Below, piece after piece: positions 1 through 52,908 of a stretch of DNA of 64,000 nt. The translations under genes and the position numbers were made by a program. The stretch covers positions 448,001 to 512,000 of the forward strand of contig CAWDDT010000009.1 of assembly GCA_963801165.1 (NCBI GenBank). The letters run 5' to 3'. The stretch is from an uncultured bacterium. GTDB lineage: Bacteria; Actinomycetota; Acidimicrobiia; Spongiisociales; UBA5794. The stretch's first letter is position 1. Each line of letters starts with the position of its first letter. The notes below the pieces were generated by a model. The model worked only from the letters and a program-made list of their open reading frames with translations. It had not been told where the DNA came from and ran no database searches.

Positions 1-927
1 ATCACTCCCGATCGAGACGGGTACCGGGCGGTCGGTCTCGACCGAGAGGTCCGCATCTCCAACCCGCACAAGCCCTTCTTCGGTGACGAGTACACCAAGG
101 GAGACCTGATCCAGTACTACGCATCGATCGCACCCGTGCTCCTGCCGCACCTAGAGGGCCGGGCGCTGTCGATGAGCCGCTACCCGGACGGTACGCACGG
201 CGGCTCGTTCTACGAGAAGCAGTGCCCGTCGCACGCACCCGACTGGCTGGTGCGGGCGCCGATCCACTCGGGCCATCGCGGCGAGGAGATCGAGTTCTGC
301 ACCGCCCCCGACATCGAATCGCTGGTGTGGCTGGCCAACATGGCATGTATCGAGATGCACCCCTGGCTGAGCCGGGCCGAGCGTCACGAGTACCCCGACT
401 TCGCAGTGTTCGACCTCGATCCTCAGGAGGGCGCCACTTGGAGCCAGGTGACATACACAGCCAACCTCATCAAGGTGATCCTCGACAAGCTCGGCCTCGC
501 CGCCTACCCCAAGACGAGCGGAGCCACGGGCATCCATATCTACGTCCCCCTCGACCCGCTCTACGAGTACAGCCGGGTCCGGAAGTTCGTCGAGACCGTT
601 GGCCAGTTGATCGTCGCCGCCGACCCGGACACCGTCACGATGATCTGGGACAAGCCGAAGCGCGGGCCCAAGGTGTTCATCGACCACAACCAGAACGTGG
701 GCGGGAAGACAATCGCCTCTGTCTATTCGGTGCGACCCCACCCAGGTGCGCCGGTTTCCACCCCGTTTCTGTGGGACGAGCTCGAGACGGTGCAACCAGA
801 CGACTTCACCATGGCCACCATCTGGCCGAGGCTGCGCCAATACGGCGATCTCTTCGCCCCGGTGTTGAGTGGTGGGCAGACCCTGGAGCGGGCGGAGGTG
901 GCGTTACACCTCGCCCCTGAGGACTAG
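1..927 (+). CDS. ligD: NHEJ DNA ligase D polymerase/primase domain (5'-partial; frame open from base 1)
   Basis: Frame 1 reads ISNPHKPFF..TKGDLIQYY, RYPDG..FYEK, DLDP, KTSGATGIHIYVP, FIDHNQN..GKTIASVYSVR, all AEP LigD-Pol motifs. Confidence 0.93.
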   Translation: MTPDRDGYRAVGLDREVRISNPHKPFFGDEYTKGDLIQYYASIAPVLLPHLEGRALSMSRYPDGTHGGSFYEKQCPSHAPDWLVRAPIHSGHRGEEIEFCTAPDIESLVWLANMACIEMHPWLSRAERHEYPDFAVFDLDPQEGATWSQVTYTANLIKVILDKLGLAAYPKTSGATGIHIYVPLDPLYEYSRVRKFVETVGQLIVAADPDTVTMIWDKPKRGPKVFIDHNQNVGGKTIASVYSVRPHPGAPVSTPFLWDELETVQPDDFTMATIWPRLRQYGDLFAPVLSGGQTLERAEVALHLAPED

Positions 928-1500
928 ATCGACGGCGGCGACGATCAGGTTGTGCTCCACCTCGTGGATGCGCTTCTCGAGATCGTCCAAGGACTCTCCC
1001 GGGAAGATCGGGACCCGCTCCAATGTCACCACAGGCCCCGCATCGACCTCAGGAATCACCCGATGCACCATGACGCCCGTCTGGGTGATCTCACCTTGTT
1101 GGAACGCGGTGTAGGCCCTCTCGATGGCGTGTGTCCCGGGAAAAGTCCCCGGCAACGCGGGATGCAGGTTGATCACCTTGCCGGGAAAGTGCTCGAGGAA
1201 CGCCTCGCTCAGCACGAGCATCCAGCCGGCCAGCACCACCAGGTCCGGCCGGTATCCGGCGACGAGCCCCGCCAGCTCGACATCGAAGGCGAGCCGGTTG
1301 CCCCCGTCGGCGAGCACGTTCCCCAGGTCCATGATCTCGGTGGGTATTCCGGCGCGCTTTGCCCGGGTCAACCCGAACGCATCGGGATCGCTCGAGACTA
1401 CCGCTGCGATTTCGGTGTCGAGATCACCCGCCGCGACGCTGTCGATCAGCGTCTGGAGGTTGGAGCCGTTACCCGAGATGAGAACGACGATCCTGCTCAC
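904..1500 (-). CDS. purN: Phosphoribosylglycinamide formyltransferase
   Basis: VLISGNGSNLQ, LAGWM, NLHPALPG, VH..VDAGP motifs; GTGA overlap with purM. Confidence 0.97.
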   Translation of the reverse strand: MSRIVVLISGNGSNLQTLIDSVAAGDLDTEIAAVVSSDPDAFGLTRAKRAGIPTEIMDLGNVLADGGNRLAFDVELAGLVAGYRPDLVVLAGWMLVLSEAFLEHFPGKVINLHPALPGTFPGTHAIERAYTAFQQGEITQTGVMVHRVIPEVDAGPVVTLERVPIFPGESLDDLEKRIHEVEHNLIVAAVDLVLRGEV

Positions 1501-2378
1501 GTCAGCTCAACCGGCTTGCCCGTGCGGGGCACGATCTCGCCAATGCGCCACGCATCGGGGCCGATGATCTCCATGGCGCCGGCGGCGTCGTCGGCGGCGA
1601 CGACAACCAACATGCCCGCCCCCATGTTGAAGGTTCGGAACATCTCTTCGTCGGGGACGTTGCCTTGCGAGCGGATCATGGCAAACAGCGGCGCCGGCGA
1701 CCACGTCGATGTGTCTATGCGCATTGCCATGTCGTCGGCGAGAACGCGGGCAGGGTTCTCGATGAGACCACCCCCCGTCACGTGAACGAGCGAATGGATG
1801 GAGATGCCCGCTTCCCGGATGCTCATCACCTCGCTCAGATAGCTGCGGTGCACGGCCAGCAGCGCAGCGCCGAGCGACGACCCGAGTGCGGCGACCCGAT
1901 CGTCGAGATTCCAATGTTCGAACACCCGGCGGGCCAGCGAATAACCGTTGGTGTGTAGCCCGGTGGACTTGATGGCGATCACGGCATCGCCGATCTCGAT
2001 GCCGCTGTGGTCGATCGCTTCCGCCCGGTCCACCACCCCCACGATCGTACCGACGACGTCGAGCTCACCCGTCCTGTAGACGCCCGGAAGCTCGGCGGTC
2101 TCACCACCGAGCAGAGCGCAGCCCGCCACCCGGCAGGCTTTCGCCATACCCCCAACCACGGTGGCGGCGATGGCGGGATCGAGTTGGCTGGTGGCGAAAT
2201 AGTCGAGAAAGAACAGAGGCCGGGCCCCCTGGACGAGAACGTCGTTGATGCAGTGGTTGACGATGTCCTGGCCGATGGTGTCGTAGCGCTGCATCGTGGT
2301 CGCGATGGTGGTTTTGGTCCCGACCGAGTCCGTCGACGCCACCAGCACCGCGGTCGGCGCCGAGCCCGGATGCGTCAT
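1497..2378 (-). CDS. purM: AIR synthase (phosphoribosylformylglycinamidine cyclo-ligase), C-terminal part; the N-terminus lies in the purD frame (frameshift at ~2352)
   Basis: VLVASTDSVGTK, NDVLVQGARPLFFLDY, GGETAELPG, GLHTNGYSL, HVTGGG, EMFRTFNMG. Confidence 0.93.
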   Translation of the reverse strand: MTHPGSAPTAVLVASTDSVGTKTTIATTMQRYDTIGQDIVNHCINDVLVQGARPLFFLDYFATSQLDPAIAATVVGGMAKACRVAGCALLGGETAELPGVYRTGELDVVGTIVGVVDRAEAIDHSGIEIGDAVIAIKSTGLHTNGYSLARRVFEHWNLDDRVAALGSSLGAALLAVHRSYLSEVMSIREAGISIHSLVHVTGGGLIENPARVLADDMAMRIDTSTWSPAPLFAMIRSQGNVPDEEMFRTFNMGAGMLVVVAADDAAGAMEIIGPDAWRIGEIVPRTGKPVELT

Positions 2379-3822
2379 ACATGCCGCCGAACGCCCCGAT
2401 GCCGCTGATCACCTCGGGCCCATAGGTGGAAACGACGGCGCGTTTCATCATGGCGACCGCCCGCGTTCCGGCGTCGATGTCGACCCCGGCGTCGGCATAG
2501 GTGGTCGACCTGGGCAGCGGGCTCTGCCCGGAGTCTTCGATCGTCCCGGAGATCCTTCCGCCGATGTCGTTGCGGTATTGCATGCCGGCGAAGTCGATGT
2601 GCTCGATGCCGTGATAGGCGCAGGCCAGAGCCATCGGCAGAGTTGGTTGCACCCCGGTGACGGCCAGGACTCTTCCACCAGCGGTGACGACATCGTCGGC
2701 AAGTGCGGTTCCGGCGTGGAATACCGTGACGCCGGGCACGCTGTTGGCTTCGCCGATGCCCGTGATGGGAATCCCCCTCTCGTACTCGCCGGGATACCCC
2801 GCCGAGGCGGCCACGACGGTCGCCGCCACTGCGTCCTCCCATTCGACGATGAGCTCATCGAGGGTTCCCGCCACGCAGGCCGACAGGATCTCGTAGAGGT
2901 CGCTGTGCAACAGAGGCAGCACCACTTGCGCCTCCGGGTCGCCGAACCGGCAGTTGAACTCGAGCACCTTGGGCCCGTCGTCGGTGAGCATCAACCCCGC
3001 ATACAGCACCCCCACATAGGGGTGTCCTTCCCGCGCCAGCTCATCGAGCACCGGTCGCATCACCCTCTCCACGACCTGAAGCTCCAGGGCCGCATCGACC
3101 AGCGGGGTCGGAGCGTATGCCCCCATGCCACCGGTATTGGGTCCCTTGTCGCCGTCGAGCAGCGGCTTGTGGTCCTGGGCGGCCGGCATCAGCGCGATGG
3201 TGGCACCGTCGCAGAAGGCGAGGACGGTGGCTTCCTGGCCCGTCAGGTATTTCTCGATGAGGACTTCGTCTCCCGATGCGCCGAACTCGCGGTCGACCAT
3301 GATCCGGTGCAGGGCGTGGTTGGACTCGGCGAGGGAGCCCGGGACGATGACCCCTTTCCCGGCGGCGAGGCCGGAGGCCTTGATAACGACCGGGTACGCG
3401 GCCGACCTGACGTACGTGACAGCTTCGTTGTAGTCGGTGAAAGCGCGGTACCCGGCGGTGGGAACCCCGGTCTTCTCCATCAACTCTTTGGAGTAACGCT
3501 TCGATCCTTCCAACCGCGCCGCAGCGGCATCAGGTCCGAAACAACGGAGTCCTGCGCTCTGGAACCTGTCGACGATTCCCACGGTCAGTGGCGCTTCCGG
3601 GCCGATCACGGTCAGGGCAATGTCGTTTGTTGTGGCGAATTCGATGAGCTCGTCGATCTCGTTCTCGCTGATCGGGACGTTCTCGATCTTGCCACCGGCG
3701 CCTGCCGTGCCACCGTTGCCCGGGGCGACGAAGACCTTGCGCACTTTCTCCGACTGTGCCAGTTTCCATGCGAGGGCATGCTCCCGTCCGCCACCTCCGA
3801 CAACGAGCACCATGTCGGTCAT
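2101..3822 (-). CDS. purD: Phosphoribosylamine-glycine ligase fused in frame to the PurM N-terminus (PurD-PurM bifunctional gene 1497-3822 with a one-base frameshift)
   Basis: GGGGREHAL, APGNGG, KASGLAAGKGV, QDHK..DGDKGPNTGGMGAY, EFNCRFGDPE, then TYADAGVDIDAG..GIGAFGGMY (PurM start); ATGA overlap with purF. Confidence 0.93.
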   Translation of the reverse strand: MTDMVLVVGGGGREHALAWKLAQSEKVRKVFVAPGNGGTAGAGGKIENVPISENEIDELIEFATTNDIALTVIGPEAPLTVGIVDRFQSAGLRCFGPDAAAARLEGSKRYSKELMEKTGVPTAGYRAFTDYNEAVTYVRSAAYPVVIKASGLAAGKGVIVPGSLAESNHALHRIMVDREFGASGDEVLIEKYLTGQEATVLAFCDGATIALMPAAQDHKPLLDGDKGPNTGGMGAYAPTPLVDAALELQVVERVMRPVLDELAREGHPYVGVLYAGLMLTDDGPKVLEFNCRFGDPEAQVVLPLLHSDLYEILSACVAGTLDELIVEWEDAVAATVVAASAGYPGEYERGIPITGIGEANSVPGVTVFHAGTALADDVVTAGGRVLAVTGVQPTLPMALACAYHGIEHIDFAGMQYRNDIGGRISGTIEDSGQSPLPRSTTYADAGVDIDAGTRAVAMMKRAVVSTYGPEVISGIGAFGGMYDASGLGADRGAGGVDGLGRDQNHHRDHDAALRHHRPGHRQPLHQRRSRPGGPASVLSRLFRHQPTRSRHRRHRGWGYGESLPGGGLRSARW

Positions 3823-5297
3823 CTGTTCTCTCCTTCGCCGGACCACGCACCCTGGAAGGCCATCTTGTCCCGGCTCTCCCAGTAGGAGTCGAGCTTGATC
3901 GGGTACTCGCCCGAGAAGCAGGCGTTGCAGTGGCCGGCGCCCGGAGGTGCCGCCGACTCGACCGCCTGCATCATCCCTTCCTCAGACAGGTAGGCGAGCG
4001 ATTCGGCCCCGATGTGCTTCCGGATCTCCTCGGTGGTCTTGATGAATCCGATGAGCTGCTCGCTGTCGGCCATGTCGATTCCCATGAAACAGGGATGCCG
4101 CACCGGCGGTGACGACACGCGGACGTGAACCTCGGCAGCGCCTCCTTCCCGCAGCAGCGAGACGAGCGGGCCGGCCGTTGTGCCGCGGACGATCGAGTCG
4201 TCGACCAGAACGACCCGCTTACCCTCGAGGTTCGATCCGAGCGGGTTGTACTTGAGATGCACTCCGGAGCGGCGCAGCTGCTCACTCGGTTGGATGAAGG
4301 TACGGCCGATGTAACGATTCTTGGTGAGACCCTCCGTATACGGGATGCCGGAGGCGGCGGCGTAGCCGATAGCCGCAGGGGTAGCCGAGTCCGGGACGCC
4401 GACGACGACGTCTGCCTCGGCGGGTGCTTCCCGTGCTAGAGCCTCGCCGAGCTTCTGGCGCACCTTGTGGATCGATTGGCCCTCGAACACCGAGTCGGGA
4501 CGGGCGAAGTACACGTACTCGAAGACGCACAACGAGGTCCGGGTCGGGGTCATGCCGATCGTGCTGTGATAGCCGTCTTTGTCGAGACGGATGATCTCGC
4601 CGGGGGCTACCTCGCGGACGAACCGGGCACCAACGGTGCCGAGGGCGCACGACTCGGAGGCGACCACGTATCCGCCACCTTCCAGCTCGCCGACGCACAG
4701 CGGGCGGAACCCCTGCGGATCCCTGACCCCGAAGACGGCATCACGGGTCAGCACGACGAGTGTGTAGGCGCCCTCCGCCTCCCGCATGAAACCGGCGATT
4801 CTGGCTTCCCAGTCGGGACCGTTGTTGGTGCCCGTCGGGGCGGCGAGCATCTGGGTGATCACCTCGCTGTCGGTGGAGGAGGTGAGCCCGACCCCCCGTT
4901 CCAGCAGCTTGTTGCGGAGTTGGGGGGCGTTGGTGAGGTTGCCGTTGTGGCCGACCCCGAGCGGCCCGTGCATTGTCTCGAGCAGGTACGGCTGGGCGTT
5001 GCGGAGATGCGACGAACCTGTCGTCGAGTAGCGAGTCTGCCCGATGGCGAGGTGGCCGGTCAGCCGGGAGAGATTGCTCTCGTTGAAGACCTGGGAGACA
5101 AGACCCATGTCCTTGTGTACCGCCGCCGAGATGCCGTCGCTGGTGGCGATGCCGGCGCTCTCCTGGCCACGATGTTGGAGCGCATAGAGGGCGAAGAAGC
5201 TGATTCGGGCGACGTCGGTGTCGGGTGCGTAGATGCCGAAGACGCCACACTCCTCGTGCGGCCGGTCCAGCTCGTCGTCTCGCAGAAACCAGTCCAT
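3819..5297 (-). CDS. purF: Amidophosphoribosyltransferase
   Basis: Propeptide then CGVFGI, QHRGQE, RYST, HNGN, VDDSIVRGTT, Fe-S cysteines. Confidence 0.98.
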   Translation of the reverse strand: MDWFLRDDELDRPHEECGVFGIYAPDTDVARISFFALYALQHRGQESAGIATSDGISAAVHKDMGLVSQVFNESNLSRLTGHLAIGQTRYSTTGSSHLRNAQPYLLETMHGPLGVGHNGNLTNAPQLRNKLLERGVGLTSSTDSEVITQMLAAPTGTNNGPDWEARIAGFMREAEGAYTLVVLTRDAVFGVRDPQGFRPLCVGELEGGGYVVASESCALGTVGARFVREVAPGEIIRLDKDGYHSTIGMTPTRTSLCVFEYVYFARPDSVFEGQSIHKVRQKLGEALAREAPAEADVVVGVPDSATPAAIGYAAASGIPYTEGLTKNRYIGRTFIQPSEQLRRSGVHLKYNPLGSNLEGKRVVLVDDSIVRGTTAGPLVSLLREGGAAEVHVRVSSPPVRHPCFMGIDMADSEQLIGFIKTTEEIRKHIGAESLAYLSEEGMMQAVESAAPPGAGHCNACFSGEYPIKLDSYWESRDKMAFQGAWSGEGENR

Positions 5298-5335
5298 GGA
5301 TCCTTACTTCCGGGGGGAGGCTAGTGGCCAGGGCA

Positions 5336-5812
5336 TTACTGAATCTCCTTGTCATCCCCGACGATCGTTTCCGTCGACGTCTGCTGGACGAGCCGCACCG
5401 TCTCCCGGATCGCATCATCTCCGACACCGAGGATCTTTGCGGCGGCCAGCGCTGCCCCACCGGGATCGAGGACCACCATAGGCGCGATGCCGGACGGCAT
5501 CCGGAGCGACGAGAAGAGATCGGCGCCGCCGAACCGGTCCGAATACGGTGGGCAGGCGATGACCGGTGCCGCGACGTTGCCGTCGACGAGACCGCTCAAC
5601 GCATTGGAGCGACCCGCGATCGTGACGTAGACCTTTGGTCTGGCATCGGCCTCGTACCCGGTCAGAATCCCGAGCAGATGGGCGGCCGCCTTGTGGGCGG
5701 AGGCGACCCGGATCTCGCTGGCGATGCCGAAGACGCTGAGCGCGTCTGCAACCGCCTTGCCGTGCTCCAGGTCCGATCTGGAGCCCATGATGATCGGAAC
5801 GAGAGGGCTCAT
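5336..5812 (-). CDS. purE: AIR carboxylase, class II PurE type
   Basis: MGSRSD, SAHK, IAGRSNALSG, SSLRMPSG. Confidence 0.95.
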   Translation of the reverse strand: MSPLVPIIMGSRSDLEHGKAVADALSVFGIASEIRVASAHKAAAHLLGILTGYEADARPKVYVTIAGRSNALSGLVDGNVAAPVIACPPYSDRFGGADLFSSLRMPSGIAPMVVLDPGGAALAAAKILGVGDDAIRETVRLVQQTSTETIVGDDKEIQ

Positions 5813-6750
5813 GACAATGCCCTTCTGATGCGATCGGCTGCCGGCTGCTCACCGGGTTCGAACGTCTTGCCGGTGAGACGCTCGTAGGTGTCGATGTACC
5901 TGGCGGCGACGGCGGCAACGAATTCGTCGGGCATCGTTGGAGCCGTTCCCTCGCCGCGGTAGCCCTGCTCGACGAACCAGAGGCGCAGGAACTCCTTGTC
6001 GTAGTTCTCCGGTTCGCCGAGCCCGTAGCTGTCGGCGACCCAGTAGCGGCTCGAGTCGGGGGTGTGCACCTCGTCGATGAGGGCGAGCTTCCCGTCGATC
6101 AGGCCGAACTCGTACTTCGTGTCGACCAGGATGAGGCCGGCCTCCGCTGCCACCCGCTGACCGTGTAGGAACACTGCCAGCGCTGCTTCTTGCACTTCGT
6201 CCCAGAGAGCCGGGTCAACCAGCCCTCTGGACACCACCTCGGACCCTGTCAGCCGCTCGTCGTGGGCGCCACCTACCGCTTTGGTGGTGGGGGTGATCAC
6301 CGGGTCCGGAAGCGGGTCGTTCTTGTGCAGGCCCGGCGGCAGGTCGAGACCGTAGGGGCGTTCGACACCCTGTTCGTACAGGGTCCACAGCGACGTCGAA
6401 GTGACCCCGGTGATGAAGCCGCGCACGATGACCTCGACCGGCAACGCTTCGGCTTCCGCACCGATAGTGACGTTTGGGTCGGGGACCGAGATAACGTGGC
6501 TGGCGACCATATCGGCGACCTCGCGGAACCACCAGGCGCTGAGCTGGTTGAGCACCTGGCCCTTGAACGGGATGACCCCGAGCACCCGGTCGAACGCTGA
6601 TACCCGGTCGGTCGTGATCAAGACCCGGCGGTCGCCCTGGAGATAGATGTCTCTGACTTTGCCCTCGATCCTCTCGCCGAGCTCGGGGTAATCGGTCCTG
6701 AGCAGCGCGCCCGGTATCGCGGCGCGGATGGTCGATTTGTTGATCGTCAC
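5809..6750 (-). CDS. purC: SAICAR synthetase (long form)
   Basis: GKVRDIY, TDRVSAFD, KGQVLNQ, DTKYEFG, DEVHTPDSSR; GTG start at 6750 with GGAGGAG RBS. Confidence 0.97.
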   Translation of the reverse strand: MTINKSTIRAAIPGALLRTDYPELGERIEGKVRDIYLQGDRRVLITTDRVSAFDRVLGVIPFKGQVLNQLSAWWFREVADMVASHVISVPDPNVTIGAEAEALPVEVIVRGFITGVTSTSLWTLYEQGVERPYGLDLPPGLHKNDPLPDPVITPTTKAVGGAHDERLTGSEVVSRGLVDPALWDEVQEAALAVFLHGQRVAAEAGLILVDTKYEFGLIDGKLALIDEVHTPDSSRYWVADSYGLGEPENYDKEFLRLWFVEQGYRGEGTAPTMPDEFVAAVAARYIDTYERLTGKTFEPGEQPAADRIRRALS

Positions 6751-6772
6751 GGCTCCTCCTCGTGATCCACCA

Positions 6773-7549
6773 CTAGACGCGGGCCGCATGGCCCACTCCG
6801 TTCTCGAATAACGCCAACCCCAAGCCCTTCTGGTGGCCGTGGTGGCGGCGCGGGTGCTGCTCCGGAGCAATGTGGTTCTCCGGGTGTGGCATCAACCCGA
6901 GGACGTTGCCGGCGGGGTTGCTGATCCCGGCGATGTTGTTCATCGAACCGTTGGGGTTGGCGGGGTAATCACCCGACGAATAGCGAACGGCGACGAGGCC
7001 CGCATCCTCGAGCGCGGTGAGAGTCCCGTCGCTGGTGAGGAACCTGCCTTCACCGTGGGCAACGGGACAGTAGATGTGTTCCTCCAGGTTGCGGGTCCAG
7101 ATGTTGTCGCCTTCCGGGACGAGCTCGACCCAGCGGCACTCGAACCGCCCCGACTCGTTGCGGGTGAGGGTGGCTTGCTGGGCCCATTGTTGCCTTGTCC
7201 CCACGGCTACGTGGTTGTCTAGAGCAGGCAGTAACCCTGACTTGACCAGGGCTTGGAAGCCGTTACAGATGCCGATGACGGGGCGGCCCGCGTCGACGAA
7301 CTCATCGAGATCGTCACCGAGCCGGGAGCGCAGAGCGATGGCCCACAGCTTGCCGGCGCCGAGGTCGTCCCCGTAGGAGAATCCACCCGGCAACACCATC
7401 ATCTGATAGTCGAGCAGACGTGCGGTCGCGTCACGGAGCGCATTGATGTGCACGATCTCGGGAACGCCACCTGCGAGGTCGAGTGCCCTGGCCACGTCGT
7501 GATCGCGGTTGGTGCCGGTGGCGTGGACGATGAGCGCCCGGGGCTTCAT
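6773..7549 (-). CDS. purQ: FGAM synthase glutaminase subunit
   Basis: GTNRD, PGGFSYGD, GICNGFQ, AHGEG, GLMPHPE. Confidence 0.97.
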   Translation of the reverse strand: MKPRALIVHATGTNRDHDVARALDLAGGVPEIVHINALRDATARLLDYQMMVLPGGFSYGDDLGAGKLWAIALRSRLGDDLDEFVDAGRPVIGICNGFQALVKSGLLPALDNHVAVGTRQQWAQQATLTRNESGRFECRWVELVPEGDNIWTRNLEEHIYCPVAHGEGRFLTSDGTLTALEDAGLVAVRYSSGDYPANPNGSMNNIAGISNPAGNVLGLMPHPENHIAPEQHPRRHHGHQKGLGLALFENGVGHAARV

Positions 7550-10434
7550 GCGTTGTCTCCCCGCCAGGCTGCGGTGAGGGCGGCGATTGTCATGCCCAGG
7601 TCGAAGTCCACCGCCCTGATAGTGACCTTCTCGGAGGCCGTCGTCTCTCCGATTCGTGCGGTCGGGTAGTTGCCCATCATCTGTTCGAACTGTGCGGCCA
7701 TCTCCGCGGGGACCTCGACGAGCAAGCGGCCGAGCGACTCGGAGAACGCGGTGGTGATCCCGCTGAGATCTCCCTCGATCGGCGCTCTGGCGAGGTCGAT
7801 GCTGGCACCAACGCCTCCGGCGATCGCCATCTCGGCAATGGCAACGGCGATACCGCCTTCGGAGACGTCGTGGCAGCTACGCACGAGCCCGTCGGCGATG
7901 GCCCGGTGCAGGGATCGGTAGCCGTCCGGAGCGTTGGGTACCGGTGCCGGAGCTTCGCCTCCGGCATTGCCCGCCCAGCCGGCGAGCGCCGAGCCGCCGA
8001 GGTGGTCTCCCGTCGCACCGATGATGTAGATCGGATTCCCCGCCTCCTTGAAGGCGCTGGTGACCGTCCTGGCGACGTCCGGCACGATGCCAACGCTGGA
8101 GATGACGAGCGTACCGGGGATTGTGTGCTTGTCCCCGTCGATGCCTGTGTACTCGTTGTTGAGGCTGTCCTTGCCCGAGATGAAAGGGGTTCCGTAGGCG
8201 ACCGCGGCGTCGTAGCAACCCTGGGTGCACCGGACAAGCGAGCCGAGCCGGTCGGGGATGTGCGGGTTTCCCCAGGAGAAGTTGTCGAGGATGGAGATCC
8301 GGTCGGGGTCGGCGCCCACGGCCACCACGTTGCGCACCGCCTCGTCGATGTTCGCCCACGCCATCCGGTAGGGGTCGACCGATCCGTAGGCGGGGTTGGT
8401 CCCGACTGCCAGAGCCGCTCCCGGTGTACCCGGGCCAATCTCGAGCGGCGTGACGACCGCGGCGTCACCGGGCCCGTATTCGCCGTTCCCGACGAGGGGC
8501 TTGACCACCGTGCCGCCCTGTACCTCGTGGTCGTAGCGGCGGAGGATGTCCTCCTTCGAATTGATGTTCGGGTGGGCGAGCAACGAGAGCAACGCCAGCA
8601 CGGGGTTGACGTCCTCGAGGCGTTCTCCGTCGACCACGGGCGGGCTCCAGGTTGCGTTAAGCCGCTGTCGGGGAATGCCGCCGTGCAAGAAACCGCAATC
8701 GAGCTCACCAACGGTGGAGCCATCGTTGAGGATGCTCAGGACACCATCTCCCGTGAACTCACCGAGCACGGTCATCTCGACATCGTGGGCCGCTGCCATG
8801 TCGGCCACCCGCGCCAGCTTGTCCTCGGGAACGGCGATCACCATCCGCTCCTGAGCCTCGCTCAGCCAGATTTCCCACGGCGCAAGACCGGGATACTTGA
8901 GCGGCACCCGGTCGAGATGGACCACGGCACCGAGCTTCTCGGCCATCTCCCCGACCGCAGATGACAGCCCGCCCGCACCGCAGTCGGTGATGGCGTTGTA
9001 GAGCCCTTCGTCGCGGGCGTCGATGAGCACGTCGAGCGTCTGCTTCTCGTGGATGGGATGGCCGATCTGCACCGCGCTCCCCGATACGTCACTCGTGGTG
9101 TGGTCGGACTCCATCGAGGAAAAGGTCGCTCCCCGCAGACCGTCGCGACCGGTGCGGCCACCGAGGACGACGATGCGGTCACCGTGCTGTGCGGCCGTCG
9201 GGTGCGAGCCTCTTGGCAGCGCGCCGAGACACCCGCAGAAGACGAGCGGGTTGGCTGTATATCCCGGGTCGTAGTAGACCGCCCCGCTCACCGTGGGAAT
9301 GCCCATCTTGTTGCCGTAATCCTCGATACCGGCGATGACCCCGGCCGCGATCCGTTTCGGGTGCAGCACCCCCGTGGGGAGTTCGTCGAACCGGGTATCG
9401 GCCGGTCCGAAGAACAGGACGTCGGTGTTGGCTATCGGCTTGGCACTGACCCCCATGACATCTCGAACCACACCGCCCACGCCGGTATTGGCGCCACCGA
9501 ACGGCTCGAGAGCCGATGGGTGATTGTGGGTCTCGACCTTGAATGCGATGTCGGTGGTGTCGTCGAGGGCGACGATCCCGGCGTCGTCAACGAAGGCCGA
9601 GTGCACCCAGGGGCGGGCCAATTCCTCGGTGGCCGCCCGGATGTGCTGGTTCAGGATCCCGTCGATGGTGACCGTCTCGATCGGCCCGGTCGCTCCCGGC
9701 GGTGGACCGGTATATGTGACCAGGGCGCGGAACGTCTTGTGGACGCAATGCTCGGACCAGGTCTGTGCGATCGTCTCCAACTCGAGGTCGGTCGCCTTCC
9801 GGTCGCCGAAGTGGGCTTGGATCGCCTCCATTTCGTCACCGTCGAGACTGAGCCGTCGCTCGTGGCTCAGGGCGATCAGCTCGTCACGGTCGAGCCCGGC
9901 GAGCGAGATGAGCTCCACGGCCGCGGGCGCGGCGACGGCGGCGCTGAAGGGTGGTGGTGCGGGAGCGTCGATGTGGTAGGTCTGGATGACCCCGTTTGCC
10001 AGTAGCGACGTGGCAATCCGCTCGACCGTGTCCCTGGTGAGCGCCTCACCGGTGATGACGTAACGCGTACCGGTGGCCGCCTGGTCGACACCGGCAAACC
10101 CGAGTTCGGCGACGCCTGCCATCAGGCTCTCGGCGGGAGAGTCAGTCACCCCTGGATGGAGCACCACCTCGACCGTGTAGGCCCCATCGCCGTACTCGAC
10201 GGTATCGAGCTCCAGGGGAAATCCGCGAGCGTCCTCGTTGATTACGTCGTGAAGCAGGGTTGCTGTCAAATCCGAGATGAGCTCGGGAGAGAGCTCACCG
10301 CTCAGGTAGTACCGGTCCCTGACCTCGACCCGCTCGACTCCCGATATGCCGAGCAGGTCGATTTGGGTCTCGAGGTTCTCGGCGCGTATGTCCCGAAAAC
10401 CCGGCTTGCTGGCAACTTCGACGCAGTAGTTCAT
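7546..10434 (-). CDS. purL: FGAM synthase PurL with N-terminal PurS-like extension (~960 aa)
   Basis: QTWSEHCVHK, KVETHNHPSALEPFGGANTGVGG, DCGAGG, SEAQERM, ISGKDSLNN, HDVSEGG; ~180-aa N-terminal PurS-like region. Confidence 0.96.
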   Translation of the reverse strand: MNYCVEVASKPGFRDIRAENLETQIDLLGISGVERVEVRDRYYLSGELSPELISDLTATLLHDVINEDARGFPLELDTVEYGDGAYTVEVVLHPGVTDSPAESLMAGVAELGFAGVDQAATGTRYVITGEALTRDTVERIATSLLANGVIQTYHIDAPAPPPFSAAVAAPAAVELISLAGLDRDELIALSHERRLSLDGDEMEAIQAHFGDRKATDLELETIAQTWSEHCVHKTFRALVTYTGPPPGATGPIETVTIDGILNQHIRAATEELARPWVHSAFVDDAGIVALDDTTDIAFKVETHNHPSALEPFGGANTGVGGVVRDVMGVSAKPIANTDVLFFGPADTRFDELPTGVLHPKRIAAGVIAGIEDYGNKMGIPTVSGAVYYDPGYTANPLVFCGCLGALPRGSHPTAAQHGDRIVVLGGRTGRDGLRGATFSSMESDHTTSDVSGSAVQIGHPIHEKQTLDVLIDARDEGLYNAITDCGAGGLSSAVGEMAEKLGAVVHLDRVPLKYPGLAPWEIWLSEAQERMVIAVPEDKLARVADMAAAHDVEMTVLGEFTGDGVLSILNDGSTVGELDCGFLHGGIPRQRLNATWSPPVVDGERLEDVNPVLALLSLLAHPNINSKEDILRRYDHEVQGGTVVKPLVGNGEYGPGDAAVVTPLEIGPGTPGAALAVGTNPAYGSVDPYRMAWANIDEAVRNVVAVGADPDRISILDNFSWGNPHIPDRLGSLVRCTQGCYDAAVAYGTPFISGKDSLNNEYTGIDGDKHTIPGTLVISSVGIVPDVARTVTSAFKEAGNPIYIIGATGDHLGGSALAGWAGNAGGEAPAPVPNAPDGYRSLHRAIADGLVRSCHDVSEGGIAVAIAEMAIAGGVGASIDLARAPIEGDLSGITTAFSESLGRLLVEVPAEMAAQFEQMMGNYPTARIGETTASEKVTIRAVDFDLGMTIAALTAAWRGDNA

Positions 10435-10596
10435 GCCCCGGTCTCTGCGGAAGATCGCAGTTTGGCAGCGGCCCGGTGCTGTGTCTCGCACTACGTCGTG
10501 GTTTCCCCTAAGCCGCGAAATCTTTTCTTAGATTGCCACCTACAGTGCTCGACCGACCACTATATTGATTTGTGTCGACGTTGTCGATGCCATACT

Positions 10597-10724
10597 CGGA
10601 AGGGCTCCCAGCTCTTTCCGGGGGACACGACCTTACGGTCGGGAATACGGTGGTTTTCGGGGGAAAACGTGTTCCAGGAAGTAGGGCGGCTCATCCTGGT
10701 AGGGGGAGATAGCCGCCCTACTTC
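10597..10724. ncRNA. Candidate structured RNA / terminator cluster between the sulfurtransferase gene and the pur operon
   Basis: Hairpin at 10597-10620; multibranch fold GGGACACG/CGTGTTCC enclosing CGACC/GGTCG and GTTTTC/GAAAAC; perfect 14-bp stem 10678-10691/10711-10724. Confidence 0.4.
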
Positions 10725-10739
10725 TACGTCCGGGGCCTC

Positions 10740-11552
10740 TCAGGGTGCGACTTCACCACCCGAGGTGCACCAATCGCTCCACGACCCCGGGTAGAGGAGA
10801 ACCCCGGCCCGGCCGGCGATCTCCATCGCCAGGATGTTGCTGCAGGCCGTCACCCCGCTTCCGCAGTAGCACACGATCGGGTTCCGGCTGGTCAAAGCCG
10901 CAAACCGCTCCGTCAGGTCGCCGACCGGGAGAAACCGCCCGGTTTCGTCCGTGTTCCCCTGATACGGGATGTTGACCGATCCGGGGATATGGCCCGCCAC
11001 CGGGTCAATAGGCTCGACCTCGCCCCGGTGGCGAGCCGCCGCACGTGAGTCGAGGAGGAGCAGGTGGTCACGACCTGCGACGATCGCTTCGCGATCAATG
11101 GTGCCCGACCACGTGCCGCCGATCGCGGTCTCTGCCGGCGGCCACGGCAGCACCTCAGCTGTGATCGAGCGACGTTCCCGTTCCCAGGCCGCCCATCCGC
11201 CGTCGAGAACGAAGGCGTCACGATGACCGAGCGAGCGCAGCATCCACCACATCCTCGCGGCCATGGAGCTGTCGCCCTGGTCGTACACGACGACGGTGTG
11301 CTCAATTCCGATGCCCACCCGTCGCATGTCTTCGGCGAACGCCGCCGCCCCGGGGAGCGGATGGCGTCCCGCACCGGGGGTCGCGGTCAGGTCCCGGTCC
11401 AGCGAGAAGTACAGGGCGCCCGGGATGTGACCGGCGCGGTACTCGTCTTCGCCTCGGGCGGATTCGGCGAGATAGAAGCGGCAGTCCGCGACCCGCAGGC
11501 TCTCGGAATGCAACCTGGTGCCCAGCCACTCGGTCGATACGAGCGGTCCCAA
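10740..11552 (-). CDS. Two-domain sulfurtransferase (rhodanese/SseA family)
   Basis: GHIPGA, GRHPLP, LDGG, GHIPGS, YCGSGVTAC, YPGSWSDW. Confidence 0.95.
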   Translation of the reverse strand: MGPLVSTEWLGTRLHSESLRVADCRFYLAESARGEDEYRAGHIPGALYFSLDRDLTATPGAGRHPLPGAAAFAEDMRRVGIGIEHTVVVYDQGDSSMAARMWWMLRSLGHRDAFVLDGGWAAWERERRSITAEVLPWPPAETAIGGTWSGTIDREAIVAGRDHLLLLDSRAAARHRGEVEPIDPVAGHIPGSVNIPYQGNTDETGRFLPVGDLTERFAALTSRNPIVCYCGSGVTACSNILAMEIAGRAGVLLYPGSWSDWCTSGGEVAP

Positions 11553-11558
11553 CGCGCC

Positions 11559-13040
11559 CTACCGTCTCCAGCCGAACATGACCCGGGCCAGCCTGGTCCA
11601 GTACCGGGGGCGTGGGCCGCGGGGGAGCCATGCCCCGAGCAGCCTCGTGGTCGGTTTGAACCGGGCGGAGGTGATCGTCCGCGGGATCGCAAACGCCTTG
11701 ATGCCCTCTGATCCCATCTGGCCACCGTTTCCTGAGTCGCCTATCCCGCCGAGGATGAGGCTGGGGAAGAAGAAGTTGATCACGTGGTCGTTGACGGCCA
11801 CCGATCCGGTCTTCATACGAGCCGCCACCGCGGCTCCGTGTCTGCGGTTTCCGGTCCACACCGAGCCGTGGAGCCCGTAGCGCGAGTCGTTGGCCTTCTC
11901 CAGCCCCTCCGCCTCGTCGGCGACACGCATGACCGGCACGATCGGGCCGAATGTTTCTTCGGTCATCAGCTTCATGGAATGGGTGACGTCGGTCATCAGG
12001 GTTGGTTGAAAGTAGATGCCGTGTTCAGTCTCTACCCGGGAACCGCCGCAGAGGATCGTGGCGCCCTGATTGACCGCGTCTGCGACATGGTCCTCGATGA
12101 TGTCGATTTGCGCCGGGTTGATGAGTGGTCCGATGTCGGTGCGGTCACCGGTGGCCACCGTGAGCTTGCGGATCGCCTTCTCCGCCTCGGTCATGAACTC
12201 GTCGTAGATTTCGGAGACGACGTAGACCCGTTCGATACCAACACACATCTGCCCGGCGTTGAACACGCCGAAGCTGACGGCGCCCCTGGCGGCTTGTTTG
12301 ATGTTGGCGTCCGCCAGCACGATCTGGGCGTCTTTGCCCCCGAGCTCCAATATCACCGGCTTCAGCCTGGCTGCGGCCGCAGCGCCGATCTTCTTGCCGA
12401 CGGCGGTTGATCCGGTGAAGGCGATGATGTCGGTCTCGGCGTCCACCAGGGCAGCTCCGGTGGCGCCGTCGCCGTGGATGACCTGGACGACGTTGTCGGG
12501 GATGCCGGCCTCTGCGGCGAGATCCTGGATCAGCTGACCGGTCAGCGGGGTGATCTCGGAAGGCTTGATGACCGCAGTGCACCCGGCCGCCAGAGCCTCG
12601 ATGACCGAGAGAAGGGGAAGAAAGAACGGGTAGTTCCACGGGGAGATGATCCCGGCCACCCCCCGCGGGTGATATTCGGTCCAGCCTTCGGTGGTGAGAA
12701 ACGGCCATAGCGCCCCCCGCTTAGGACGGAGCAGACGGGCCGCGTTGTGGGCGTAGAAGTCGAGAACTGTGAGCGCCGCCAGCACTTCGGCGTGGACATC
12801 GCTGCGGTGCTTCCCGGTCTCGGAGATCATCACATCCGCGATGCGATCCATCGATCGAAGCACGTGCTTGGCGAAGCCGCGGAGGTAGGGAGCACGCTCG
12901 GCATGACTCATCGCTCCCCACGTGGTGAATGCCGTCCGGGACCGCGCCACCGCGTCGGCTACGCCATCGGGCTCGGTGATCGGTACCGATCCCGCCTGGT
13001 CGCCGGTGAGCGGGCTGTGGGGGGTCAGCCAGCGGGTCAT
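11559..13040 (-). CDS. Aldehyde dehydrogenase family protein
   Basis: ISPWNYP, KPSE, FTGST, LELGGK, NAGQMC, EETFGP; start taken at ATG 13040. Confidence 0.95.
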   Translation of the reverse strand: MTRWLTPHSPLTGDQAGSVPITEPDGVADAVARSRTAFTTWGAMSHAERAPYLRGFAKHVLRSMDRIADVMISETGKHRSDVHAEVLAALTVLDFYAHNAARLLRPKRGALWPFLTTEGWTEYHPRGVAGIISPWNYPFFLPLLSVIEALAAGCTAVIKPSEITPLTGQLIQDLAAEAGIPDNVVQVIHGDGATGAALVDAETDIIAFTGSTAVGKKIGAAAAARLKPVILELGGKDAQIVLADANIKQAARGAVSFGVFNAGQMCVGIERVYVVSEIYDEFMTEAEKAIRKLTVATGDRTDIGPLINPAQIDIIEDHVADAVNQGATILCGGSRVETEHGIYFQPTLMTDVTHSMKLMTEETFGPIVPVMRVADEAEGLEKANDSRYGLHGSVWTGNRRHGAAVAARMKTGSVAVNDHVINFFFPSLILGGIGDSGNGGQMGSEGIKAFAIPRTITSARFKPTTRLLGAWLPRGPRPRYWTRLARVMFGWRR

Positions 13041-13561
13041 GTCGGTTGTGCCATCGGGTTGGCGGCGATGAGTGTCGCCGGCGCCGCGGCGGCCTCCCAG
13101 GGTCGAGCGACCGAGTGCCAGGCGAGCGCCACCACCAATATCGGGATTCCGAGCGGGGCGTCTATGTCGACCTTGTTGTAGGAGACGAGCGAGCCGGTGA
13201 TTCTGGCCACCGGGGTGCCACCCACCGTTATGTGCCAGCGCCGGGGGCGGGGATCGCTGACCAGCTGATATACCCATCGTTGCGAGGTGATCTCCCAGCG
13301 TCTCCCGAACCACGAGGTTCGGGTGATCCTGGCTAACTCGGTTCCTTTCGCATCGAGAGCGACAACCACGGAGTGCTCGTGTGGTGCGAGCACCGCCTCC
13401 TCTCCGTCGGGCATGTAGATCCGGGAGATATGAAGACGGCCGATACGGCGCATGGTGGCGACCTCGCTGCCGTTGTGAAGGAGTCGCCAGCGGCTGGACA
13501 TGAACGGGCTGCGCAGCTCGGCTGCGCCGTAGACCGTCCCGAACAAGCCTCGATCTGCCAT
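13037..13561 (-). CDS. Hypothetical protein (possibly LURP1/scramblase-like beta fold)
   Basis: ORF translationally coupled (ATGA) to the ALDH gene; repeated beta-strand pattern; start uncertain. Confidence 0.6.
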   Translation of the reverse strand: MADRGLFGTVYGAAELRSPFMSSRWRLLHNGSEVATMRRIGRLHISRIYMPDGEEAVLAPHEHSVVVALDAKGTELARITRTSWFGRRWEITSQRWVYQLVSDPRPRRWHITVGGTPVARITGSLVSYNKVDIDAPLGIPILVVALAWHSVARPWEAAAAPATLIAANPMAQPT

Positions 13562-13616
13562 GACCTGAACGGTAGTACGTCCACCGACACGGTGGCGGGC
13601 GGTATCGTCGGGGTCC

Positions 13617-14486
13617 ATGAAGCTGCATCTGATGGACGGGACCTACGAGCTGTTCCGTTCGCATTTCGGGTCGCCGACCCGCACCAGCCCGTCCGGCCAG
13701 GAGGTCGGCGGCGTCTACGGGATCGTCGCCTCGACCCTGTCTCTTCTGAGCGAGTCCGGCGTGACACATCTGGCCGCCGCCTTCGACACCGTCATCGAGT
13801 CGTTCCGCAACGAGGTGTATGACGGCTACAAGACGGGCGCCGGTGTCGAGGAAGTCCTTCTGGCCCAGTTTCCTCTTGCCGAGCGAGCCCTAGAGGCGAT
13901 CGGCGTGAAGGTGTGGCCGATGGTCGAGTTCGAGGCGGACGATGCGCTGGCAACTGCCGCCTGGCGCTGGGTGAGCGCGGTCGACCAGGTGGTGGTGCTG
14001 ACCCCGGACAAGGACCTCGCCCAGTGTTACGGGAACCCCAAGATCGTCGGCTACGACCGGCGCAGGCAGGCCTTCATCGACCATGACGCGGTTGTGGCTA
14101 AGTTCGGCGTTTACCCGGACTCGATACCCGACTATCTGTCACTGGTCGGGGACTCGGCCGACGGCTTTCCCGGTCTGCCGGGGTGGGGCGCCAAGTCGGC
14201 CGGCACGGTGCTGCAGCGCTACGTGCACCTGGAGAACATCCCGCTCGAGGCATCACGATGGGACGTCACGGTGCGAAGCGCCGACAAGCTCGCCACCACC
14301 CTGCGCACCCGGATGGGCGACGCTCTGTTGTTCCGGTTCCTGGCCCAGCTCCGCCCCGATGTTCCTCTCAGCGACGAGCTGGAGGATCTCGAGTGGCGCG
14401 GCGCCCACCGTGAGGCATTCACCGAGCTGTGCGACGAGCTTGGTTTCGGTGGGCTCCGCAACCGCCCGGAGAAGTGGCAGGACTAA
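13617..14486 (+). CDS. Stand-alone 5'-3' exonuclease / flap endonuclease
   Basis: DGTYELFR, AFD, SFRNE.Y.GYK, FEADD, DKD, LVGDSADGFPGLPGWGAK (H3TH). Confidence 0.94.
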   Translation: MKLHLMDGTYELFRSHFGSPTRTSPSGQEVGGVYGIVASTLSLLSESGVTHLAAAFDTVIESFRNEVYDGYKTGAGVEEVLLAQFPLAERALEAIGVKVWPMVEFEADDALATAAWRWVSAVDQVVVLTPDKDLAQCYGNPKIVGYDRRRQAFIDHDAVVAKFGVYPDSIPDYLSLVGDSADGFPGLPGWGAKSAGTVLQRYVHLENIPLEASRWDVTVRSADKLATTLRTRMGDALLFRFLAQLRPDVPLSDELEDLEWRGAHREAFTELCDELGFGGLRNRPEKWQD

Positions 14487-14537
14487 CGCTTCTAGCGTCC
14501 AATCTGGCGAGATATTGCCTCTGCAGACGCCCAGAAG
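14487..14537. repeat. REP-like imperfect palindrome, copy A
   Basis: CGCTTCTAGCGTCCAA...GACGCCCAGAAG; 15/16 identical to the reverse complement of 17910-17925. Confidence 0.6.
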
Positions 14538-14589
14538 ACTCTGCCAACTGCTACTCAAAGTGCTCGTGTTCTTGCCGATACAGGTGAGC

Positions 14590-46832: not shown

Positions 46833-46937
46833 TTGCTTTCTCCTTCTGCTTGGAACCCTTCACCCACACGTTGACCGACGACGATCGTTTTCAGGTTGTA
46901 CGGCGCTTTGATCCGGATAGCACGGTACGTTTGCGTC

Positions 46938-51417: not shown

Positions 51418-52695
51418 TCATGGTGCTCGTGCGTGTTGGGCGGGTCGACCGCTGGTGGTGTAGTGGTGCCCGAGAGGGCTGGTGTGAACGAATTCGCCGC
51501 CCTTGACGAGTTGGTAGCTCCACCCATACGCATGTCGGATCACATGGTGATGGCGACACATGGGTCCGAGGTCACATGTGCATGTGATGTGTCGGTGCGA
51601 CCATGGGATGCGGTGGTCGATGTCACAGTCGACGGCCGGTCTGCGACATCCCGGATGGATGCAGGTGGGATGTAGGGTCTCGGCTCGGCGGCGCTGCGAG
51701 GCGGTGGGTCTGCGTCGGGTTATGCCGCCGTCGATGGGCTGTCCGGTGTCGGGGTCGACGAGGGACCAGCGGTGCTCGACGTGCTCTTGATGATCGGCCA
51801 CCTGGCGGGCGATGTCGGCCAGTATCGGCCCGTACCCTCCCAACTCGGCCGACTCGTCGGATTGACCTGTGAGGGTCTCTGCGGTGAGGTTCATGTCGAG
51901 AATGCCGTAGTCGGCCCGGGTGATCTTCCCGGTCACCCTACGGCGTTTCAGGAGGTCGAGATAGATGTCGGCTCGTAGCTGATCCATGGTGCGGGTGTCG
52001 CCGAGGCGTTTTAGCTTGAGCGCTTCCTTGCTGATCCACTTGCCGATCGCGGCGGCGTCGTGGGGCGGTAGATCCAATCCGAGGATGTTGGCGGTTCCGG
52101 AACCGGTGGGCTCTACCACCAGGCGGCGATCCTGCACAGACTGGTCGTAGCGCGCCTTCGCCGCCTCGGGGTCGAGGTCGATGCACAGCTTCTCCAGCCG
52201 GCGGTGCAACTGGCCCGGGGTCAGCCCTGACGCCTCGGGCAACACGAAGTCAACGATCTGCTGGGCGGTGGTGTCCGCCAGGACCATCGTGTGTTGCACG
52301 ATGATCTTGGCCCGGTAGAGGTCGATCCGTCCGTGGAGGACTGCTTCGAACACCTGCGGGTAGTGCCGGCACAAAACCACCGCAAAGGACGTCTCGGTCT
52401 CGGCGGTACGTCGGGTCATATGGAGGGCGGCGCCGATCTCGGCAGCGGCGCCGTCTTGAACCTCCTGGCTATAGGAGAGCCCGCTCTGGAAGTCGTGCTG
52501 GTAGATGGCGACGATCTTCTCAATGGTCCAGCATCGTCCGGCCTGGTAGTGCGAAATCTGCCGGTCCTGGGCCTGGAGGACCCGGATGAGGTTGTAGCCG
52601 GAGAGGTGTTCCCAATCCACGCCGGCCAACACCGCCGCCAATTGGGGGCCGGGCGGGATGTCTTTCAGGTTGTCCGGTACTTGGGAGTCGAACAT
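51418..52695 (-). CDS. DUF222 / HNH endonuclease (13E12-repeat-like) protein
   Basis: RTMDQLRAD, L.GYGP, C.HPGC..PA..CDIDH.IPW, L.P.CRHHH..RH..GW, TSPLG..Y. Confidence 0.92.
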   Translation of the reverse strand: MFDSQVPDNLKDIPPGPQLAAVLAGVDWEHLSGYNLIRVLQAQDRQISHYQAGRCWTIEKIVAIYQHDFQSGLSYSQEVQDGAAAEIGAALHMTRRTAETETSFAVVLCRHYPQVFEAVLHGRIDLYRAKIIVQHTMVLADTTAQQIVDFVLPEASGLTPGQLHRRLEKLCIDLDPEAAKARYDQSVQDRRLVVEPTGSGTANILGLDLPPHDAAAIGKWISKEALKLKRLGDTRTMDQLRADIYLDLLKRRRVTGKITRADYGILDMNLTAETLTGQSDESAELGGYGPILADIARQVADHQEHVEHRWSLVDPDTGQPIDGGITRRRPTASQRRRAETLHPTCIHPGCRRPAVDCDIDHRIPWSHRHITCTCDLGPMCRHHHVIRHAYGWSYQLVKGGEFVHTSPLGHHYTTSGRPAQHARAP

Positions 52696-52724
52696 ACGTT
52701 CGATACTACCCGATGTCTGGGACA
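52688..52724 (-). promoter_or_regulatory. LexA SOS box overlapping the start codon plus a RecA-NDp/PafBC-like promoter
   Basis: TCGAAC-ATAC-GTTCGA at 52688-52703; minus strand TGTCCC-N10-TAGTAT at 52724-52703. Confidence 0.85.
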
Positions 52725-52908
52725 AGTCAAGGCTATCGATCGTTCTCGCCGGGGATCTCTGATGCCTCAGCTCAACGGGAAGGTCACGGGCGCTGAAAGG
52801 TTGCAGACGTAACCGGCTCCTCGATTTGCCGATATGGGCGACCGAAGTGACGAAGCGCTCACAAGTCGGATCAACTCGCGACGAGGGCCAGCTAGGAGTG
52901 TGGGGCGA

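Follow-up and report, generated by a model that had tools for sequence, protein, structure and literature searches.

We analyzed a 64,000-nt stretch of contig CAWDDT010000009.1 from an uncultured bacterium of the class Acidimicrobiia (positions 448,001 to 512,000 of the forward strand; hereafter the window). Between 904 and 10491, its minus strand holds seven reading frames with PurS and PurL, PurQ, PurC, PurE, PurF, PurD, PurM, and PurN domains (Pfam), in the order that a sequence-only reading of this DNA had given for 904-10434: purSL-purQ, purC-purE, purF, purD::purM-purN. This gene order is the standard arrangement of a whole bacterial lineage. Our comparisons support the conclusion that the operon is non-actinobacterial in origin and was acquired horizontally from Chloroflexota-type bacteria, and we consider it likely that an Anaerolineae-type Chloroflexota operon was taken up whole by an ancestor of the host genus, replacing native genes. 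The likeness of its products to the fused purine enzymes of animals and fungi is mostly convergence, not descent.

Distribution of the operon type and evidence for transfer

We scanned one genome per prokaryotic species with an alignment of 14 class II PurE sequences, annotated the best 80 loci with the window proteins, and took the taxa of the loci from the submitters' titles. Three loci belong to Acidimicrobiia metagenome-assembled genomes (MAGs) and four to genomes titled Proteobacteria; nearly all others are from Chloroflexota, including Anaerolineae, Caldilineae, Thermoflexus, and Ardenticatenaceae. The pur genes found lie on one strand in 80/80 loci, with purC before purE in 74/74 and purF adjoining purE in 75/75. 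This synteny search, which the sequence-only reading had proposed as a check, recovered the full order L-Q-C-E-F-D-M-N in 43 of the 80 loci, and the others except one are shorter pieces of the same order. The exception, L041, reads C-F-E, and the stop-to-stop frames of E and F overlap there. With (S)L-Q-C-E(II)-F-D-M-N on one strand, the window has the composition by which we define the Anaerolineae-type operon. By our own arithmetic, the block order has a probability of 24/5040 under random arrangement of seven genes and is therefore not a chance arrangement.

Class-II-like PurE (at least 129 bits) was present in 65/151 genomes of the class of Leptolinea, in 31/301 of its phylum, and in 11/401 genomes of the window's own class, a tally that includes four unpublished genomes, all without it. 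Among 25 other genomes of the window's family, a single one (the congener, G372) has a class-II-like PurE; a further 23 give weak matches of class-I-like type, and the last gives no match. A plasmid collection whose named records are mostly proteobacterial and Firmicutes contained no class II PurE at E<=1e-8, and in the best 25 of its 82 records matching PurN, none exceeded 43% identity.

The genomes nearest to the host carry different pur genes. In three genomes of the same family and one of the same order, the native genes are unfused, and their products are 45-46% (PurD), 35-41% (PurM), 50-52% (PurF), 41-44% (PurC), and 38-42% (PurN) identical to those of the window. Chloroflexota loci with the same gene order are 50-77% identical to the window proteins overall, and the Caldilineae locus L011 reaches 60% for PurD, 60% for PurM, 72% for PurF, 76% for PurC, 70% for PurE, and 57% for PurN. 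Two control genes of the window show the opposite pattern. NadE is 83% identical to that of the congener, 72% and 62% to those of two family genomes, and 33% to that of Leptolinea; DAHP synthase is 92% identical to that of the congener, 81% to that of one family genome, and 51% to that of Leptolinea, with no match in the family relative G110. The Caldilineae genome G402 yielded neither control. The congener carries both of them on the contig that holds its operon, spaced as in the window. These two genes behave vertically.

In careful trees, the operon-type sequences of Acidimicrobiia form a clade among Chloroflexota for both PurD (94/95) and PurM (100/98). Native PurD groups with Nocardia (99/97), and native PurM is placed far off (100/100). 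The submitters' titles of the nearest relatives and this position of native PurD point to an Acidimicrobiia host. The sequence-only reading had suggested a non-actinobacterial, horizontally acquired operon, and the native identities, the Chloroflexota loci, the control genes, and these two trees all bear this out. The GC content (64.5-66.2% across the operon compared to 62.5-66.7% over the window) shows no anomaly, and congeners differ by 19-34% in the operon proteins, indicating that the transfer was not recent.

Neighboring genes of the operon are fused in different combinations from locus to locus: PurS-L in 47/53, D-M in 25/60, and C-E in 1/74 loci, with L-Q treated below. Relatives also contain M-N, D-N, N-H, N-C-E, E-C, D-L, F-N, and N-S-L fusions. 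The pairing of pur genes thus appears combinatorial, and the eukaryote-like pairs are not special. A literature search, covering titles and abstract openings, returned nothing on this operon type or on bacterial GARS-AIRS fusions.

Several further fusions came to our attention. Metagenomic fusion proteins, including N-PurS-PurL and D-PurL, are represented by P0340, P0298, P0300, P0297, P0360, P0356, P0403, P0346, and P0328. A 629-aa piece comprising the end of PurD followed by PurM and PurN is likely part of a bacterial GART-like trifunctional protein, and its PurN is near those of Villigracilaceae-like loci. Bacterial PurC-PurE(II) fusions, one titled a Deltaproteobacteria MAG, are found in L022 (454-1995) and P0125, and the reverse PurE-PurC order also exists; P0128, P0179, and P0234 are listed with them. 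In the tree, L022, P0125, and P0128 adjoin the PurE clade of the operon type, whereas P0179 and P0234 make up a PurE-PurC clade of their own. The Atlas holds clusters of bacterial C-E and D-M fusions, and Myxococcota, Bacteroidota, and even Nucleocytoviricota are listed for those of C-E. Some Anaerolineales loci (L030, L034, L035, L041, L056, L062, L069, and L088, at about 10300-14000 in each) form a subgroup in which the PurM frame is ~520-590 aa long and purN lies ~1.2 kb downstream of purM rather than abutting it.

Operon layout and enzyme classes

The features of the locus are as follows.

10559-10587, minus strand: promoter-like hexamers, ~125 nt upstream of purL (consensus match only, 10/12 positions)
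7546-10434, minus strand: purL, with a PurS-like repeat, PurS, FGAR-AT linker, and small-type core (Pfam PurS, linker, AIRS/AIRS_C x2)
6773-7549, minus strand: purQ, glutaminase subunit (GATase_5, 2.4e-67, Pfam)
5809-6750, minus strand: purC, SAICAR synthetase, long type (SAICAR_synt, 1.9e-60; Pfam frame 5809-6870)
5336-5812, minus strand: purE, predicted class II, AIR carboxylase type (AIRC, 1.4e-35, Pfam)
3819-5297, minus strand: purF, amidophosphoribosyltransferase (GATase and Pribosyltran, Pfam)
2359-3822, minus strand: purD and the first ~50 purM residues in frame (GARS_N/A/C, Pfam, frame 2101-3846)
2358, minus strand: extra base that moves the purD-purM frame by +1 (comparison with intact P0006 and a related contig)
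1497-2357, minus strand: rest of purM in the +1 frame (AIRS/AIRS_C, Pfam, frame 1497-2378)
904-1500, minus strand: purN, GAR formyltransferase of a fungal-like "group B" type, GTG start (Formyl_trans_N, 4.8e-50; trees; motifs)

We set the purL start at ATG 10434, within a frame that is open from GTG 10491. The purC start is probably GTG 6750, which has AGGAGGAG ahead of it; ATG 6789 and TTG 6870 are the other options. By ORF coordinates, 4-bp start/stop overlaps join purL to purQ (7546-7549) and purC to purE (5809-5812), with ATG as the start of purQ and of purE, and purM to purN (1497-1500), which begins with GTG. These are the overlaps that the sequence-only reading had placed inside its gene groups. 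A fourth, ATGA at 3819-3822 between purF and purD (purD start ATG 3822), is absent from that reading and crosses its groups; since purF is also coupled to purD, the coupling pattern does not fully mirror them. Spacers occur at two junctions only, purQ/purC (22 nt, given GTG 6750) and purE/purF (38 nt). A single transcript is probable, with the overlaps providing putative translational coupling in the blocks L-Q, C-E, and F-DM-N. The consensus search upstream of purL found 2 promoter-like sites compared to 0.9 expected. No Rfam RNA family was detected anywhere in the 64-kb window, and no riboswitch was seen before the operon.

The PurD frame enters the PurM N-terminus without a stop (YADAGVDIDAG...GAFGG), continues for ~50 residues, and then goes out of frame; the remainder of purM is in the +1 frame because of one extra base at 2358. 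The purD::purM fusion described by the sequence-only reading is therefore visible in the shared frame, which is nevertheless broken at 2358, so that PurD and PurM do not share one uninterrupted frame here. P0006, an intact 774-aa relative that is 96% identical, lacks the extra base and reads through, and the purM remainder is 95% identical to its residues 486-774. Intact D-M fusions of 773-777 aa comprise P0006 and most top matches. A related-strain contig (public run X1) also lacks base 2358. This check used contigs only, with one related-strain contig spanning the site and runs X2-X4 having no coverage there. Programmed frameshifting at 2358 was considered and dropped, as relatives read straight through.

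Among solved structures, the best match of PurE is 3rg8 (1e-48, 168 bits), followed by PAICS 2h31 (1e-30, 110 bits), compared to ~1e-12 for class I chains; other listed PurE chains score 30-61 bits. In the PurE tree, the window protein is inside the class II radiation, and the class I outgroups L101 and L127 are apart. Judged from its sequence, the window purE is class II, as had been claimed, its product being nearer to enzymes of proven class II type than to the class I mutases. It resembles the bacterial class II PurE 3rg8/3rgg in being a stand-alone protein of ~158 aa, in its end-to-end phmmer alignment, and in the motifs SAHK and AGRSNALSG. It differs in that its gene overlaps purC by 4 bp within a seven-gene operon and in that its activity is predicted.

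PurL is closest to the small PurL 3viu (304 bits), with 185 bits for large PurL and 162 bits for PFAS, the lowest of its solved matches. A PurS domain occupies residues 106-175 (46.8 bits, Pfam) and is preceded by a weak PurS-like repeat (17 bits, E 0.0069, half of the model, below the 22.2 cut-off). The purSL fusion reported earlier holds, with PurS ahead of PurL. PurS may be doubled, an arrangement that would imitate a PurS dimer, as large PurL does. The glutaminase domain is absent from PurL and is found as GATase_5 in the adjoining gene, and the protein has neither the C-terminal glutaminase fusion nor the large-type core of large PurL and PFAS. Its small-type core with a PurS-like extension corresponds to the medium, PurS-fused layout (mdPurL). 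As described for some archaea (Brown et al. 2011, PMC3261824), mdPurL has a small-type core, ~200 N-terminal residues standing in for PurS, and a separate purQ. The window PurL shares this layout and differs in being bacterial and in having a clear PurS match with a weak second repeat; additionally, PurQ is fused to PurL in 12/53 related loci.

The best solved match of PurC is yeast 1a48, and no match to PAICS 2h31 was obtained at E<=0.001 among solved chains. Unlike PAICS, purC and purE here are two genes, and PurC is not of the short type. PurF has a 16-residue leader before the catalytic Cys, such that solved matches begin with query residue 17 at chain residue 1; it scores 476 bits with 9q0n, 439 with the B. 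subtilis-type 1ao0, and 301 with the E. coli enzyme.

The genome (4.55 Mb in 13 contigs, estimated 98% complete, contamination 5.59%) contains a single PurE and a single PurM, and PurH is on another contig. The absence of purK noted in the sequence-only reading extends to the whole genome, where the top purK match scores 49 bits and the cut-off is 318; of 5 operon-bearing genomes tested, none reached the cut-off. A second, native purD is located on contig 5 at 198892-200133 (locus L154, 5887-7146) and is the only extra copy by local tblastn. It is flanked by purA (adenylosuccinate synthetase) and purB (adenylosuccinate lyase), overlapping each neighbor by 4 bp, and its product is 87% identical to the congener's copy and 46% to the operon PurD. 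The congener also retains its native purD. This operon is probably the organism's sole one for de novo purine synthesis. We also note that the family relative G110 has a class I purE directly after purD.

We hypothesize that the operon covers steps 1-7 of the pathway, with predicted activities of PurF, PurD, PurN, PurS-L with PurQ, PurM, class II PurE, and PurC. PurE would carboxylate 5-aminoimidazole ribonucleotide (AIR) directly, without PurK or ATP. The genes for PurB and PurH are located elsewhere in the genome. Moving from Chloroflexota to Acidimicrobiia, the incoming operon would have replaced native purE(I)/K, C, F, M, and N, while the native purA-purD-purB cluster would have been kept. 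Fusions of neighboring genes (S-L, L-Q, D-M, C-E, and others) probably arose repeatedly inside the operon family, and the likeness to PFAS, PAICS, and GART would then be parallel evolution on the same gene pairs.

Eukaryotic affinities and competing explanations

The sequence-only reading had suggested that the operon came from the lineage that supplied eukaryotic purine genes, or that it represents a pre-fusion state of PFAS, PAICS, and GART. We examined this gene by gene, running the proposed single-gene phylogenies for PurD, PurM, PurN, and PurE. The named reference bacteria in these comparisons are chromosomes mis-filed in the plasmid collection; they span few phyla.

The window PurD shares 54-57% identity with GART of vertebrates and oomycetes, compared to 40-50% for ten named reference bacteria and 29 to 50% for the wider plasmid-collection matches. 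Its best solved match is human GARS (469 bits versus 202-410 bits for chains taken as bacterial). KASGLAAGKGV and MP.AQDHK (PAAQDHK in the sequence-only reading), previously singled out as eukaryote-type signatures, are indeed common to operon-type PurD and eukaryotic GART. KADG is found in 6/8 named reference bacteria shown and in native Acidimicrobiia copies, Nocardia has KDDG, and Ilyobacter has KASG. In the careful PurD tree, eukaryotes are on the operon-type side of an 85/98 split and are nested there on weak branches only. The approximately unbiased (AU) test did not reject eukaryotes on the proteobacterial/Firmicutes/actinobacterial side (p 0.257). The affinity of PurD to eukaryotic GART is suggestive, and its tree position is not significant.

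PurM gave a different result. In its tree, the eukaryotic domains cluster with Sinorhizobium (100/98) and the operon type has a clade of its own (100/99); joining eukaryotes to the operon type was rejected (AU p 0.0165). For the PurM domain of rodent GART, identity is 58% with Sinorhizobium and 42% with the operon type. This separate ancestry of PurM indicates that the D-M fusion arose in bacteria independently of Ade5,7 and GART; descent of both GARS-AIRS halves from a common fusion is contradicted by PurM and finds no decision in the PurD test.

The PurN tree splits (100/99) into group A, with Bacillus, three proteobacteria, native Acidimicrobiia, and the animal and oomycete GART domains, and group B, in which the operon type is joined by nine PurNs from fungi and dictyostelids and by several bacterial fusion proteins. 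Moving the fungal/dictyostelid set to group A was rejected (AU p 0.008); we note that this set was chosen after a quick tree had been seen. The motifs LHPALPG.F.G..AIERA and MVH.V mark group B, are common to fungal and dictyostelid PurN, and are absent from animal/oomycete GART and from the Bacillus/proteobacterial references. They are exactly the yeast ADE8-like motifs to which the sequence-only reading had pointed. The affinity of fungal and dictyostelid PurN to the operon-type clade is real but partial.

For PurE, the tree is poorly resolved (158 columns, 51/117 branches open), and we used it only for the distance of the PAICS-like clade (96*), which lies well away from the window's clade. 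The PAICS-like clade is anchored by P0192 (496 bits to 2h31), and further eukaryotic PAICS sequences were recognized through Myb-fused gene models. The PurC half of P0192 matches short PurCs, and the window PurC is of the long yeast/actinobacterial type.

A eukaryotic source in this lineage, or a pre-fusion state, would be in keeping with the PurD identity, motifs, 85/98 split, and human GARS match, with the fungal and dictyostelid PurNs inside the operon-type group, with the occurrence of class II PurE in animals, and with yeast Ade1 as the nearest solved chain to PurC. However, eukaryotic PurM belongs with Sinorhizobium, the alternative PurD placement is tolerated, animal and oomycete GART PurNs are in the other group, PurL is of the small type with PFAS as its lowest-scoring match, the PAICS-like PurE clade is remote, the short-type PAICS PurC has no match to that of the window, and relatives show many other fusion combinations. 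Sampling without archaea, cyanobacteria, and many other phyla also tells against it: PurN group B and the operon side of PurD may hold unsampled lineages, and Chloroflexota cannot be named as donor to eukaryotes. We therefore regard this explanation as improbable. Taken whole, it fails on the rejected PurM joining, on the types of PurL and PurC, and on the remote PAICS PurE clade; what is left of it concerns PurN in fungi and dictyostelids and, suggestively but without significance, PurD. In a related proposal, which we consider unlikely, some eukaryotic purine enzymes came from carriers of the Anaerolineae-type operon and not from the alphaproteobacterial or archaeal partner, so that at least two bacterial sources would have contributed to a mosaic eukaryotic pathway, with D-M, C-E, and L-Q fused independently in both domains. 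Candidates would be the stand-alone PurN (Ade8) of fungi and Amoebozoa and perhaps the GARS of GART and the animal class II PurE. If true, this would indicate a shared selective reason for pairing non-consecutive steps.

Vertical inheritance would make the operon ancestral in the host's class and later replaced by class-I-type genes in nearly all relatives. The occurrence of class II PurE in 8 genomes of family f14 and 1 of f43, as well as in L010, L012, and L017, and the GC content without anomaly are compatible with this. Yet almost every sampled family would have had to lose the operon, both the window's genome and the congener keep a native purD, which groups with family copies, the f14 PurEs fall on weak branches near Anaerolineae subgroups other than those near the window's clade, and the control genes run the opposite way; we judge vertical inheritance very unlikely. 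A binning or assembly artefact, in which a Chloroflexota contig was misplaced in this genome, might be suspected from the contamination estimate, the 13 contigs, and the probable metagenome assembly. The operon contig is, however, 591.5 kb long with the same GC as other contigs, and housekeeping genes 30-50 kb away are 62-92% identical to those of same-family and same-genus genomes. Since the congener has the operon and those genes on one contig at equal spacing, a mis-binned contig is excluded, and the chance of any such artefact seems negligible. Uptake of the whole operon from a Chloroflexota-type donor is the explanation we prefer, and some points weigh against it. The backbone inside the operon-type clade is weak in the PurD, PurM, and PurE trees (ultrafast bootstrap, UFBoot, 26-75), so neither the donor subgroup nor, formally, the direction of transfer is fixed. 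The sole purM of the genome is frameshifted here, through either an assembly error or a real lesion; a real lesion would leave the operon unable to sustain de novo synthesis. Finally, the enzyme classes are predictions from sequence.

Set beside known systems, the locus is alike in part to each. Fungal Ade5,7 and animal/oomycete GART share its PurD-then-PurM order with purN next, as well as the PurD identity (GART) and motifs; the window differs in a PurM of other ancestry, a separate purN gene, and a frame broken in the assembly. Animal PAICS (2h31) is alike in class II PurE chemistry, which is predicted here, and in PurC preceding PurE, whereas the window has two genes, a long-type PurC, and a PurE clade that is not a neighbor. 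The Bacillus subtilis operon has the order purEKBCSQLFMNHD. Like the window, it is one long pur operon with S, Q, and L together and M adjoining N; it differs in having class I PurE with PurK, no fusions, C apart from E, and D apart from M. The reference for this comparison was a Bacillus sp. locus (L127). Passages of PMC8449271 describe bifunctional GARS-AIRS in Amoebozoa and Fungi and call the bacterial enzymes single units.

Under our preferred explanation, the locus would be a clean case in which an essential biosynthetic operon, taken over whole, displaced the native genes of another phylum and left the native purD behind as a marker. Traits treated in textbooks as eukaryotic, namely a PurK-less AIR carboxylase, the GARS-AIRS fusion, a PurL to which PurS and PurQ are attached, and PurC adjoining or fused with PurE, are ordinary in a large uncultured bacterial group. 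Bacteria and eukaryotes have independently fused the same non-consecutive steps, which offers a test bed for why these pairs join. Should the fungal PurN affinity hold under full sampling, it would be relevant to how eukaryotic metabolism originated as a mosaic.

Other features of the window

On the plus strand, positions 1-927 hold the coding sequence for the C-terminal portion of a protein with a LigD primase-polymerase domain; this sequence converges on purN, its last 24 bases overlapping the purN end. A 1018-aa protein with four lamin-tail domains (LTD) is encoded at 14083-17139 (plus strand). The minus strand between 22012 and 32716 carries a glycogen/alpha-glucan cluster with branching-enzyme-like, starch-synthase-like, and isoamylase-like proteins, a phosphorylase, and a 4-alpha-glucanotransferase.

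DUF222 is often found with HNH endonuclease domains in Actinobacteria; a DUF222 protein is encoded at 51418-52725 (minus strand) and may be a mobile element remnant. Finally, the plus strand at 46896-51242 encodes a 1448-aa protein in which a SARP-type regulator (Trans_reg_C, BTAD, AAA_16, TPR) is combined with an extracellular solute-binding domain of family 5. It is unusual for a cytoplasmic regulator to be paired with a binding module of periplasmic type.

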